DNA of 64,000 nt from an uncultured Pelagibacteraceae bacterium (GCA_902518835.1 CABYHH010000001.1:44052-108051); one strand, 5' to 3'; counted from the first letter of the stretch, positions 2,875-64,000 are shown. Numbers and translations are program-made. Notes: a model not told the origin generated them from the sequence alone.

Positions 2875-3755
2875 TAAATTAATTTTGCTAATTTTAATGC
2901 TTCTTCTACAATTTTCTTAGTTGATTCGGTTATACTTACCAAAGGAAGTCTTACACCATCGTCTGAAAGATTAAGTAATTTTGCTGCAAATTTTACAGGA
3001 CTAGGGTTGCTCTCTACAAACATTGAATAATGAAGTGGCTGTAAAATTTTATCTAATTCTTCAGCTTTAGATTTAGATAACTCATCGCTTAGAATTGAAA
3101 ATTTTTGAAATTCTGAGCATAATTTTGGGGCAATATTTGCAGTTACACTTATAGCACCTATTCCTCCTCTTCTGTTAAATTCAAGGGCATTGTCATCATT
3201 TCCAGTTAATTGAATAAACTCTTTTCCCAATTTTTCTTTAGTTTTATTAACCCTATCTAATTCTCCTGTAGCATCTTTTACACCAACAATATTTTTTAAT
3301 TCAAATAACCTGGCCATAGTGTCAACTGACATATCAACAACTGACCTTCCTGGTATATTATAAATTATTATTGGCAAACCAGAATTATCATTTATCGCTT
3401 TGTAGTGTTGATAAAGACCCTCTTGTGTTGGTTTATTATAATATGGTGTTACAACCAGGGCACCATCGGCACCAATTTTTTCAGCATGTCTAGTTAAAGA
3501 AATGGCTTCTTTTGTTGAATTAGAACCTGTCCCAGCAATTATTGGGATCTTGCCATTACTTTCTTTAACACATAATTCTATTACTTTTTCATGTTCTTCA
3601 TGACTTAAAGTAGGAGATTCTCCGGTAGTACCAGCAGGCACTAAACCATTTGTCCCATTTTTAATATGAAAATGAATAAGTTTTATATAAGCATCTTCAT
3701 CAAACTTATCATTTTTAAAAGGGGTTATTAAAGCAACATTTGAACCTTTAAACAT
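2874..3755 (-). CDS. dapA: 4-hydroxy-tetrahydrodipicolinate synthase
   Basis: [23 protein letters not shown] (Schiff-base Lys). Confidence 0.96.
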
Positions 3756-60769: not shown

Positions 60770-61522
60770 ATGAATAAATCGTCATTTTTTATTGTTGGTC
60801 AACATGCTGTCACAGAGGCTCTAAAAAACCCTAAAAGAAAGGTTCTAAGGATTTTTTTAACTGAGGAAAGTAAGAAGAATATACATAGGAAAAATCCAAA
60901 CAATAATCTTTTAAAAGAAGTTAAAGTATATTTTAAAACAAAAAAAGAGCTCGACAAATATAGCACTAAAGAGAATTTACAACACCAAGGTTATGTTGCA
61001 GAAATTGAACACTTAAAAAAACCCTCACTAAAAGAATTTATCAAAGATAAAAATAATATGACATTAATATGTTTAGATGGTGTTACTGATCCCAGAAATA
61101 TTGGTTCTTTGATAAGAACTGCATCTGCATTTAGTGTTGATGGCATAATTATAAAAGAAAGAATTTTTCCACATGAAAGTAAACTTCTCTTTAAGGCAGC
61201 TAGTGGTGCAATTGAACATATAAATATATTCGAGGTACCAAATATAAATTCAACTTTAAAAAATCTTAAAAGTAAAAATTTTTGGGTATATGGATTTGAA
61301 GGAAGTTCCAATCAAAATTTTACAGATATTGAATGGAAAGGTAATAATATACTTTTATTTGGCTCGGAGGGATCTGGATTACATAAACATACTCAGAAAT
61401 ATGCAGATTTCTCTGTCAAAATAAATATTAGTAAAAAAATAGAGAGCCTAAATGTTTCTAACAGCGTAGCCGTTGTACTTCATCATCTTAGTTTTCTTAA
61501 AAAAAAAGAGTTGATTAATTAG
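60770..61522 (+). CDS. rlmB: 23S rRNA (guanosine-2'-O)-methyltransferase RlmB (SpoU/TrmH family)
   Basis: HQG, LDGVTDPRNIGSLIRT, FGSEGSG, ESLNVS. Confidence 0.92.
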   Translation: MNKSSFFIVGQHAVTEALKNPKRKVLRIFLTEESKKNIHRKNPNNNLLKEVKVYFKTKKELDKYSTKENLQHQGYVAEIEHLKKPSLKEFIKDKNNMTLICLDGVTDPRNIGSLIRTASAFSVDGIIIKERIFPHESKLLFKAASGAIEHINIFEVPNINSTLKNLKSKNFWVYGFEGSSNQNFTDIEWKGNNILLFGSEGSGLHKHTQKYADFSVKINISKKIESLNVSNSVAVVLHHLSFLKKKELIN

Positions 61523-61547: not shown

Positions 61548-61623
61548 GCCCTTGTAGCTCAGCTGGTAGAGCAATTGATTTGTAATCAATAGGTCCGCGG
61601 TTCGAATCCGTGCGGGGGCACCA
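61548..61623 (+). tRNA. tRNA-Thr(UGU)
   Basis: GCCCTTGTAGCTCAGCTGGTAGAGCAATTGATT-TGT-AATCAAT...GGTTCGAATCC...GGCACCA, 76 nt. Confidence 0.97.
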
Positions 61624-61644
61624 TCAATTTTACCTAATAAAAAA

Positions 61645-62514
61645 TTAAATAATTTTTTTTACTAGTTTAATTAATTTTGTTAAATTATTAGAATAAATAC
61701 TATGTTTATATAAATTACATTGTATCGTGGATCTTGCTACATTATTTTCTAATTCGATTGGATAAACTGCATGCCAAGATATATCATTTTTACCAAAACC
61801 AAATATTCTATTTGGATACGGGTGAACATCGTATTCTCTAATTAACTTTTCCTTTTCATAGTAATCTAGATGTGATTTAGCTTTTTTACTCCATTCCTCA
61901 AAACCTTTTCTGATTGAATACATTTGAGTTCCCAAACCTTTTCTCTTAATTGAGTCTGTAAAACCAAAATAAAGTAATAAAGATATTACTTTATCATCGT
62001 GATCTTTGTGCTGGTTAAGTCCTGCATTTGACGTGTAGGCTGATAATCTGAATTTAATATGACAATTTTTATAGAATAAGTAGTCCCAAATACTCAATTT
62101 AGAATTTTCGTTATGAATCTTTAAAGGTTTAAGTGAAGCTAGGTTAAATAATGAGAAAGGTATTAAAAGTCTATAAATTTTTTTTTGTATTTGTTTTGAT
62201 AATTCAATTACAATATCTTCCATTGGGCATCCATCCTTATTAAGAATGTTAATTATATTTTCAGTTGAATTATATTTATCACTTTGACCCCCACCACCAG
62301 ACACAATTACTTTACCCTTTTCTTTTGAGGCATCGTATCTTTGGATATCATCTGTACGAAATGTACTGTTATTATTTTTTCCCAATAAAAAGTCTTTTAT
62401 ACTTGAGTTAACTTGTTTACTTAATTTAAGATAAACGTCATTTTTTATAAAATCGTCAATTATAAATGCTTTAAATGGCTTGTTAATTATATATTTTTTT
62501 TCAAAATTAAACAT
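61645..62514 (-). CDS. 2OG-Fe(II) oxygenase superfamily protein (putative)
   Basis: FIIDDF N-terminal motif, HxD (QHKD) followed by KVISLLLYF, distal His (SWHAV) and R-S-T-I-Q as the likely 2OG-binding Arg. Confidence 0.7.
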   Translation of the reverse strand: MFNFEKKYIINKPFKAFIIDDFIKNDVYLKLSKQVNSSIKDFLLGKNNNSTFRTDDIQRYDASKEKGKVIVSGGGGQSDKYNSTENIINILNKDGCPMEDIVIELSKQIQKKIYRLLIPFSLFNLASLKPLKIHNENSKLSIWDYLFYKNCHIKFRLSAYTSNAGLNQHKDHDDKVISLLLYFGFTDSIKRKGLGTQMYSIRKGFEEWSKKAKSHLDYYEKEKLIREYDVHPYPNRIFGFGKNDISWHAVYPIELENNVARSTIQCNLYKHSIYSNNLTKLIKLVKKII

Positions 62515-62658
62515 AAAAGTTTAACAATAAATACAATTATAAAAAATTTAAATTACTAAATGTTATTTTTTTAAAATAAATTATCATTCACGCAAAATTA
62601 TTTCAATGTCGAAAATATATCAAGATTATTGTTGTAAACAAATGTTTATTGAAAATTA

Positions 62659-62712
62659 AGCAATTCATTTGTAATCAATAGGTCCGCGGTTCGAATCCGT
62701 GCGGGGGCACCA
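62659..62712 (+). repeat. duplicated 3' portion of tRNA-Thr(UGU) (att-like direct repeat, not a full tRNA)
   Basis: AGCAATTcATTTGTAATCAATAGGTCCGCGGTTCGAATCCGTGCGGGGGCACCA; tRNA positions 1-22 are absent. Confidence 0.95.
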
Positions 62713-64000
62713 CTAAAAACTGTTACTTACAATTATATTCGCCCCATAGTCAGGAATATCACTAAAAAAATTATATTTAGATGAAATTTTTAAGTCGAAG
62801 TTATCTGTTTTTTTTATAAATTCTAAATTAGTAGAACTTGTTTCATCTATTTCTAACGCAATTTTTATTTCATCAACTGGAACATATCCTAAAGATAAAA
62901 AAAACTCATTATAGTAACCTTTTCCACTTGCACCAAATCTCTCAACGTTTGTTACTATTGACCAACCAGTGACTGTAGTTATGTCTAAACCATATCCAAT
63001 TCTATAATTATGTTTTGATTTGTTATTAGCTTTATATTTATAAACTGTGCTTTGATTGTTTAGATGATAAAATTCTGCATTAGAAGATGGGCTTAAATCT
63101 CCCACATACTCCAATCTCCCATGATGGATTGTTTTTTTTTCTTTCTCCTTTTTTTCTTTATCGAACAATACTCCAATTGTTGCCATTGCATTTTTAATAT
63201 TTTGTTCTTTATAAATTAATGCATCACTCAAACTATTACCTAAGGTAGTTTTTTCTCTAAAAGCTTTAAGTTTTGTATATCCTAAGTCTAATTTGATACC
63301 AGGATTTAGATTTATTTCTTTATCATGTAATCTTTTTCCATAATTAATTGAACCAAATATTTGTTGTCCTTCTCTATTTCCTTTAAGAGTATTGCCGTAA
63401 GTAACTCTCGTATGATCAATATCTAATAAGCTTAACCCAATAATCCCATCTGTAAAAAAATCATCTTCTCCAATTTTTGTTCCATAAAGTGCTAAACTAT
63501 AAGAATCTGTATCTAGTCCTGTACCTTGGCCACCAATATCAATATTATCATTTCCATATTGGAAAACATATCCATACATCACATCTCTATTTTTATCTTT
63601 AATTCTATCAGCACCAACTGAGATACCATATGTGTGAATATCTCTAGATGAAGTGTCTATTGCATGTCTTTTCCCTAGACTTATTCTACCCTCACTCCAT
63701 TGAAACCAATCATCACTATTATAAGTTCTGTCTTTTTCTTTTTTAGTATTTAAAGCACTTACTAATTTTGCAATTCTCTGATTTGTAAACTCTATTTCAG
63801 CTTTCAAGTTTGAAAGATTGTCTTTGTTTTTATGTCTTCTTAACCATTCAGTTCTATGAAACACTGGAAGTATATTATTCCTAATAATTCTTTTAGATAA
63901 CTCTACGTTAGCTTCAATGATAGCTTTTACATCAGCATTAGTTGATGCATCAAGACAAGTTATAGTTCCAGCACAATCAACATCGTATTCATAAATCACA
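62713..64000 (-). CDS. autotransporter beta-domain outer membrane protein, C-terminal part (5' end beyond window)
   Basis: Helical linker, then WSEGRISLG, GISVGAD, YSLALYG, LNPGIKLDLGY amphipathic strands; terminal Phe; frame open to the window edge. Confidence 0.75.
   Translation of the reverse strand, partial: VIYEYDVDCAGTITCLDASTNADVKAIIEANVELSKRIIRNNILPVFHRTEWLRRHKNKDNLSNLKAEIEFTNQRIAKLVSALNTKKEKDRTYNSDDWFQWSEGRISLGKRHAIDTSSRDIHTYGISVGADRIKDKNRDVMYGYVFQYGNDNIDIGGQGTGLDTDSYSLALYGTKIGEDDFFTDGIIGLSLLDIDHTRVTYGNTLKGNREGQQIFGSINYGKRLHDKEINLNPGIKLDLGYTKLKAFREKTTLGNSLSDALIYKEQNIKNAMATIGVLFDKEKKEKEKKTIHHGRLEYVGDLSPSSNAEFYHLNNQSTVYKYKANNKSKHNYRIGYGLDITTVTGWSIVTNVERFGASGKGYYNEFFLSLGYVPVDEIKIALEIDETSSTNLEFIKKTDNFDLKISSKYNFFSDIPDYGANIIVSNSF

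Follow-up and report, generated by a model that had tools for sequence, protein, structure and literature searches.

Integrase-free gene units stacked at tRNA-Thr in Pelagibacterales and a candidate satellite helper

Behind the tRNA-Thr(UGU) gene of an uncultured Pelagibacteraceae bacterium, small units without an integrase are stacked additively; every unit has a single att copy derived from the tRNA and a promoter-like box of its own, as the initial annotation of this DNA had proposed. We regard it as rather probable that these units are non-autonomous elements using a satellite-type integrase, with insertion likely at the anticodon loop and carriage between cells likely too. A more far-reaching reading is put forward tentatively: each unit may be a standard-format cassette with two integrase arms and a leaderless slot in which unrelated genes are fused at the start codon. 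It would be a parasite of a phage satellite, itself a parasite, and would be made of satellite parts; through it tRNA-Thr would do the work of an integron, with defence and surface genes still being exchanged between species.

The tRNA-Thr array in the window and in related genomes

The stretch of DNA analysed (the window, 64,000 nt) corresponds to positions 44052-108051 of contig C1 in its own genome (G000, 1.0 Mb, 86% complete). Nucleotides 61570-61623, the 3′ part of the tRNA gene, are copied in repeat 1 (54 nt; BLAST within G000, E 6.5e-23, Table 1), and the sole mismatch falls at position 8, so that the last 46 nt are identical. The 1,035 bp between the two copies hold one antisense ORF, which stops 21 nt from the CCA of the tRNA; the ORF that follows, likewise antisense, runs right up to the CCA of repeat 1 (0 nt). 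Repeat, spacing and gene ends were all described correctly from the start, and following the contig past position 64,000, as had been suggested, revealed a third, decayed copy. The array thus reads rlmB, tRNA, 2OG-Fe(II)-like gene, repeat, gene for a 700-aa autotransporter-domain protein, decayed repeat, TPR gene, xsc.

Table 1. Features of the tRNA-Thr locus. Plain coordinates are window positions; C1 coordinates are those of the G000 contig.
Feature	Position	Strand	Remarks
rlmB	60770..61522	+	core gene beside target; TIGR00186 above cut-off
tRNA-Thr(UGU)	61548..61623	+	insertion target (attB/attL)
Unit-1 cargo, 2OG-Fe(II) oxygenase-like, 289 aa	61645..62514	-	weak PF13640, E 0.012, below cut-off
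Extended -10 box of unit 1	62578..62586	-	80-88 nt ahead of tRNA position 30 in repeat 1
Right-arm (P arm) remnant	62608..62664	+	cassette-arm profile E 1.8e-4, profile positions 43-99
Repeat 1	62659..62712	+	tRNA positions 23-76, 53/54; attR-type copy
Unit-2 cargo, 3′ part	62713..64000	-	whole gene G000:C1:106764-108866
Unit-2 right arm, repeat pair decayed	C1:108925-109000		arm profile E 4.2e-7; outside window
Repeat 2 (third, decayed copy)	C1:108998-109040		tRNA positions 26-68, 93%; 2.3 kb further, outside window
TPR gene, 430 aa	C1:109049-110341		possible oldest cargo; distal repeat not found
xsc, core gene	C1:110567-112351		after TPR gene

An assembly artefact is ruled out, as unit 1 is matched by public metagenome contigs. 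One seawater contig spans it from the tRNA 3′ end (1,051 nt, 0 differences) and a contig from a second metagenome run crosses it into the repeat; either run may relate to the source sample. The remnant of a single prophage is likewise ruled out, by the continuation of the contig, the loci of relatives and the metagenome contigs. No circle or skip joints at the repeats were found in the contigs of four runs, a check made without the distal end of unit 2, repeat 2 or depth differences, and contigs cannot prove absence.

Comparison across relatives gave the expected picture of arrays with variable content: one or two 3′ tRNA-Thr copies were found in 10 of the 20 same-genus loci mapped (one of the 20 is only 1.2 kb long downstream), and the cargo differs. 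Several relatives without copies have an NAD-kinase-like gene (family assigned for one homologue) close behind the tRNA, an arrangement that looks like the empty state. When the flanks were aligned, conservation across unrelated cargo extended over ∼ 90 nt ahead of each copy and ∼ 100 nt behind each CCA.

A larger set of 119 loci, overlapping the first 20, was drawn by an arm-plus-core pattern from species-representative genomes; the statistics below are for loci of at least 1 kb, with 112 repeats after removal of redundancy and 96 bounded units. Named records sharing tRNA core and arm pattern are Pelagibacterales in all 80 listed cases, which points to Pelagibacter as the host. Bounded units have a median length of 1.6 kb (range 333-4,955 bp) and most frequently hold two ORFs (49/96), so the single-gene unit first proposed does not describe the relatives. 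Cassette ORFs are antisense to the tRNA in 210 of 220 cases. No integrase ORF or fragment was found at any of the 119 pattern-selected loci by profile and tblastn searches, in which the positive controls matched and which cover only about 300 nt per side at short loci; nor does any integrase or transposase Pfam family occur among the 119 representatives of the cargo families. A Pfam match was obtained for 35 of these representatives and none for 84. Many of the matches are of restriction type (MrcB_N, SRA-HNH, DpnI, Mrr, NucS, HNH, T5orf172, C5 methylase); pilin-like proteins, DMSP lyase and globin are also represented.

A near-identical, signal-peptide-like N-terminus opens unrelated exported proteins in 34 of the 220 cassette ORFs (L103-L182, mostly tRNA-proximal). 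The same pattern occurs in 8 of 469 satellite-locus ORFs (L229, L239, L251, L254) and in 1 of 1,058 G000 ORFs, and it may be a shuffling module.

Unit architecture and the aged units of the window

Units follow one layout: tRNA or repeat, left arm, antisense cargo, a promoter-like box abutting a pair of 11-bp repeats, and the 3′ tRNA copy. Among 112 right arms examined, 86 have the tandem pair, and in 83 of these it begins 78 nt before tRNA position 30. A left arm with the repeat pair is present in 58 of the 96 units, and in 52 of the 96, all from relatives, both arms carry pairs. Left and right repeat variants agree at 4.13 of 5 within a unit versus 3.17 between units (0/2000 shuffles, with kin not independent); for the satellites described below the values are 4.85 and 2.88. 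Searched alone, as a test independent of the core, the arm motif turned up in 28 of 150 genomes of the genus, and the reversed control gave 0. Of the 32 matches examined, 28 adjoin tRNA-Thr and 0 lie at other tRNAs.

The extended -10 columns, which stood outside the search pattern, read T100 G96 n T99 A100 w A n T94 over 99 arms. An ORF starts 86-105 nt from the core at 91 of the 112 repeats (80 of them at 94-96 nt), and the 91 slot proteins fall into 65 families. ORF-initial ATG codons stand in the slot at 74 of 111 repeats, compared with 46 of 1926 random places. Since the gene starts ∼ 6-8 nt after the -10 box, leaderless transcripts are predicted. Because a plausible -35 position falls within the second repeat, some of the conservation of the right arm could be due to selection on the promoter.

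The 3′ copies start most often at tRNA position 30 (36/112) and 5′ copies end at positions 41-45. These ends bracket loop positions 32-38 and would place the crossover in the anticodon loop, a known class of integration site. The antisense orientation of the cargo, observed as first reported, follows that of the int slot of the satellites; taken alone it is weak evidence, because neighbouring core genes run in the same direction and GC skew is mostly negative there, so that it is partly confounded by replication direction.

Measured against this format, the window units are aged, probably immobilised members whose arms are partly lost, and not the start of a system as first supposed. The right arm of unit 1 has lost its 11-bp pair; its -10 box retains the canonical distance of the family and presumably acts as a promoter. 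The cassette-arm profile matches G000 at its two repeats only and detects no left arm in this genome, and the two genes of the window begin at a distance of 152 and 136 nt from the core, not 95. The unit-1 protein has ESM Atlas neighbours at 0.95, part of them with PF13640. Its gene body is absent at the DNA level from 400 genus genomes, save for one 99-nt match near the gene start; unit-1 DNA as a whole matches 20 of the 400, and 19 of these 20 matches cover the arm end. The exported unit-2 protein (700 aa) combines a beta-propeller-like region with an autotransporter beta-domain; G000 encodes three paralogues of it, and 23 of 60 relatives have a homologue.

Variants of the format were also seen. 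Directly after tRNA-Thr, loci L240 and L243 show a left and a right arm joined at the 11-bp repeats, the kind of trace expected if recombination between its arm repeats had collapsed a unit; because of this fusion the two loci (cassette-type left arm, four genes, intact int), which could be taken for one hybrid element, were left uncounted. A second, unrelated right-arm type precedes the repeat at +6136 in G017, the repeat at +2570 in G030, and those of L122 and L168, ahead of larger cargo such as the C5 methylase of L168. G030 also has a 427-aa PF00589 frame about 14 kb from tRNA-Thr. Seven loci of the sister family f2 (L094-L098, L101, L102) carry 0.4-0.9-kb units with tRNA-Thr 3′ copies, in which no arm repeat pairs are visible by eye.

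Movement between hosts and the candidate helper

Units and half-units recur across divergent hosts at 95-100% identity. The whole integrase-free unit shared by L104 and L143 is 98.0% identical over 1,455 nt in hosts that are 81% alike; upstream of the tRNA the flanks are 76-87% identical, and unrelated DNA follows the repeat. L121 and L124 behave similarly, with a softer downstream edge. The left parts of L112/L160 and of L120/L161 are 95-97% alike between unrelated flanks, in one pair at different ranks of the array. Many pairs are alike in the left or the right half only, which makes the units mosaics.

The att core was also encountered outside the chromosomes; the initial annotation had suggested looking for it in phages and satellites. 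In viral contig L054 an unsplit att site (tRNA positions 21-76) is flanked by a repeat pair to the left and to the right; the cargo slot is taken by an antisense tyrosine integrase of 328 aa (PF00589), and AAA_25 and TerS (Terminase_2) genes are also present. Two peptide patterns retrieved 58 metagenome loci with an L054-type integrase, one identical to the 8,916-nt L054 sequence. A tRNA core lies at the int start in 54 of the 58 (42 Thr, 12 Asn) and in 4 there is none; terminal repeats of 99-127 nt are seen in three contigs, and three contain the ∼ 7-kb element twice in tandem. These ∼ 7-kb elements share core and repeat layout with the cassettes, with int in the place of cargo, and are probable phage satellites, judging from a tyrosine integrase together with replication/packaging genes in a small element. 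No conjugation genes were found among the ORFs scanned. An integrase homologue occurs in 24 of 401 genus genomes and a close one in two of them, G303, where it lies at a tRNA-Thr repeat, and G310, where a whole 6.4-kb element is found at tRNA-Asn; G000 has no close one. The start-SD-repeat layout recurs in distant homologues located at other tRNAs; the repeats thus behave like an arm site of the whole family and, by analogy with lambda-type integrases, may bind Int. G000 has ihfA- and ihfB-like genes, scoring below curated cut-offs.

The match between cassettes and satellites is incomplete. In satellite right arms the pair lies at 88-90 nt (37/37), ∼ 10 nt or about one helical turn beyond the 78 nt of cassettes, spacer GC is 0.43 versus 0.17, and only 17 of 172 cassette repeat units have an identical counterpart among those of the satellites; the precise cognate integrase may therefore be unsampled or extinct. 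Cassette profiles score weakly against satellite arms (E 0.03 at best, through the repeat pair alone), so that cassette arms are not recent copies of these.

We propose that a satellite Int would recombine at the anticodon loop, restoring the tRNA and shifting older units outward. A satellite beside a unit could then excise together with it, or use the unit's arms, by accretion and cis-mobilisation or in trans; a helper phage would package the satellite-unit DNA, which would integrate in a new host, and the satellite could leave later. Cargo would be swapped at the promoter slot, with transcripts predicted to be leaderless, and useful units would persist while their arms erode, as in the window. 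Accretion with cis carriage is the simplest version, because the units have no recognisable origin or packaging gene. The recombinase acting in trans that was first envisaged thus finds a candidate family with the same core, although carriage in cis by an adjacent satellite fits equally. A cassette-type box, repeat pair and slot gene are present, without the core, in the cargo of satellites L251 (unsplit attP form) and L238, and such an arm and gene inside satellites are suggestive of mobilisation in cis. Homologues in satellite loci were found for 20 of the 220 cassette ORFs, a few of which are probably host genes.

It is conceivable, though we think it unlikely, that the units are relics spread by homologous recombination: satellites would lose int and replication genes, a cargo gene would end at the int promoter under selection, and RecA would spread the product via the tRNA and the 47-54-nt repeat. 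Decay intermediates do exist (truncated int with arm in L268, L270, L271, L272 and L278, an int-free long arm in L126), satellites and cassettes have a common cargo pool, and the att-bounded identical tract of L104/L143 would also fit two crossovers in tRNA-derived sequence. However, the relics seen keep the long (88-90 nt) arm, often with int fragments, whereas the pattern-selected loci yielded none. Left-arm repeats, which have no promoter role, are nevertheless retained and match the right arm, and a fixed 78-nt spacing over 65 cargo families is unexpected for independent deletions.

A separate autonomous family with 78-nt arms, its integrase unsampled and the units its commonest integrase-deleted chromosomal form, seems improbable to us. 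The main cassette repeat variants do resemble the arms of distant integrases (26-42% identity) at Arg, Gly, Leu and Met tRNAs, and the metagenome search rested on the two peptide patterns only; yet no integrase was found beside a 78-nt arm or in the slot of short-arm repeats, and short-arm patterns gave 0 Pelagibacter-type matches in viral contigs. There, both the arm-plus-core and the cassette spacer pattern had 0 matches, and the arm pair alone had four, none beside a tRNA-Thr core; one of them lies in a contig of 62% GC, close to an integrase of 27% identity. The 24 matches to the core alone are mostly tRNA genes of other viruses, complete or almost so, and only that of L054 is an att site; GenBank phages showed only full tRNA-like matches of about 80-86% identity among the best 30 of 64.

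That a host Xer-like tyrosine recombinase acts in trans on the anticodon-arm palindrome, in a host-run integron-like system, is very improbable: a PF00589 gene is nearly always at hand (in 30 of 36 relatives from the genus, usually as a single copy), but the only one in G000, a 301-aa SAM-domain recombinase located ∼ 91 kb away from the array, stays under the cut-offs for XerC, XerD and IntI (TIGR02249 28.5 bits versus 265), and such an enzyme would need no arm repeats, yet the same layout adjoins satellite int genes. As a phmmer query it matched nothing in the core-bearing viral loci, the L054 integrase included. A divergent tyrosine recombinase (L032, G000:C1:14212-14712) is single in most genus genomes; the sister family mostly has two, which score more strongly.

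Relation to known systems and further tRNA-linked insertions

The comparison with integrons made at the outset holds in part. The stack is additive and polarised: the proximal copy is perfect and the distal one decayed in 8 arrays, with the reverse in 1 and 11 tied, that is, with the newest next to the fixed site. As in integrons, ordered, exchangeable cargo, with restriction-type and unknown genes, accumulates at one site. The arrays are not integrons, however. IntI is absent beside the array in G000 (86% complete), and an attC-like box pair, sought with a simple motif, lies near only 2 of 112 repeats; the separator is a tRNA fragment and the site a tRNA. There is no shared Pc promoter, as every unit brings its own -10 box facing the tRNA.

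Partial-tRNA cassettes, island growth at tRNA ends, CIMEs and satellites are all in print (PMC7771536, PMC12817590, 10.64898/2026.04.03.716430, PMC11796062, PMC9618062, PMC5704250, 10.1101/2020.12.28.424599, PMC11876622). Additive tRNA-linked flexible islands of SAR11 gMED (PMC11796062) and ‘Ca. Actinomarinales’ (PMC7771536) consist of small tRNA-side cassettes with a partial tRNA direct repeat and no mobility genes; the partial repeat at the cassette end and the variable content at one site are found here too. For SAR11 the figure text gives Met, Leu/Val and Gly as the tRNAs concerned and does not list Thr, and the passages on flexible islands mention neither arms nor a promoter slot nor a helper integrase. 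CIMEs, whose formation by decay is documented, likewise lack integration and transfer genes and stand in tandem at a tRNA-type target; they keep att sites and can be carried by an adjacent active element (PMC5704250). They are described there as decayed ICEs or IMEs moved by conjugation, whereas here the candidate helper is satellite-like, the short-arm and promoter format uniform and the cargo swappable; descent from an ICE or IME was not found, the related autonomous elements being satellite-like (integrase, helicase, TerS).

The candidate helpers resemble VEIMEs (∼ 7 kb, tyrosine integrase, primase/helicase, TerS in some, tandem copies, Pelagibacter hosts), about 20% of which have no integrase and might use that of another element (PMC9618062). 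The cassettes (0.3-5 kb) differ in also lacking replication and packaging genes; published VEIME datasets or preprint supplements may hold these satellites already. Tycheposons and cryptic elements of Prochlorococcus are tRNA-targeted, with newer elements pushing older ones inward and leaving partial-tRNA scars, but in the account given Tycheposons are defined by an integrase of their own (10.1101/2020.12.28.424599), which the cassettes do not have. In the literature searched, whose scope excluded most subscription journals, we found neither the format of arms and promoter nor the link to a helper described.

A 2026 preprint on Pelagibacterales (10.64898/2026.10.07.757358) cautions that ‘inserted’ prejudges an unresolved mechanism for flexible single genes and small cassettes, and finds mobility genes almost absent; in its Arctic population, variable regions were not generally linked to tRNAs, so the route proposed here would explain only part of the flexible genome. 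The locus provides named parts for a direct test (core, arm repeats, promoter slot, candidate integrases), ties marine satellites, integrase-less ones among them, to the building of host islands, and offers a testable gene-swapping route in an ocean bacterium with almost no mobile elements.

The same tRNA-Thr also receives insertions of opposite polarity (L086 in G021:C16, L093 in G028:C22, L092 in G030:C39, L115 and L142), which leave the 5′ half (positions 1-41 to 1-45) in place and have the full tRNA behind the insert. Conserved flanks are common to G021, G028 and L115, the insert of G021 comprises 6 kb of large ORFs, and L115 and L142 gave no int-family match; these insertions are probably a second element family. 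In L088-L091 (G009, G024, G035, G036) one to three antisense genes lie between rlmB and tRNA-Thr with the 5′ copy undetected, possibly as aged inserts of this polarity. Elsewhere in G000, two 5′-half copies of tRNA-Leu(UAA) lie beside exported-protein-like genes (C18:1372-1410 and 3634-3671) and a short tmRNA repeat is present at C4:42347-42376; these are further arrays in the same genome.
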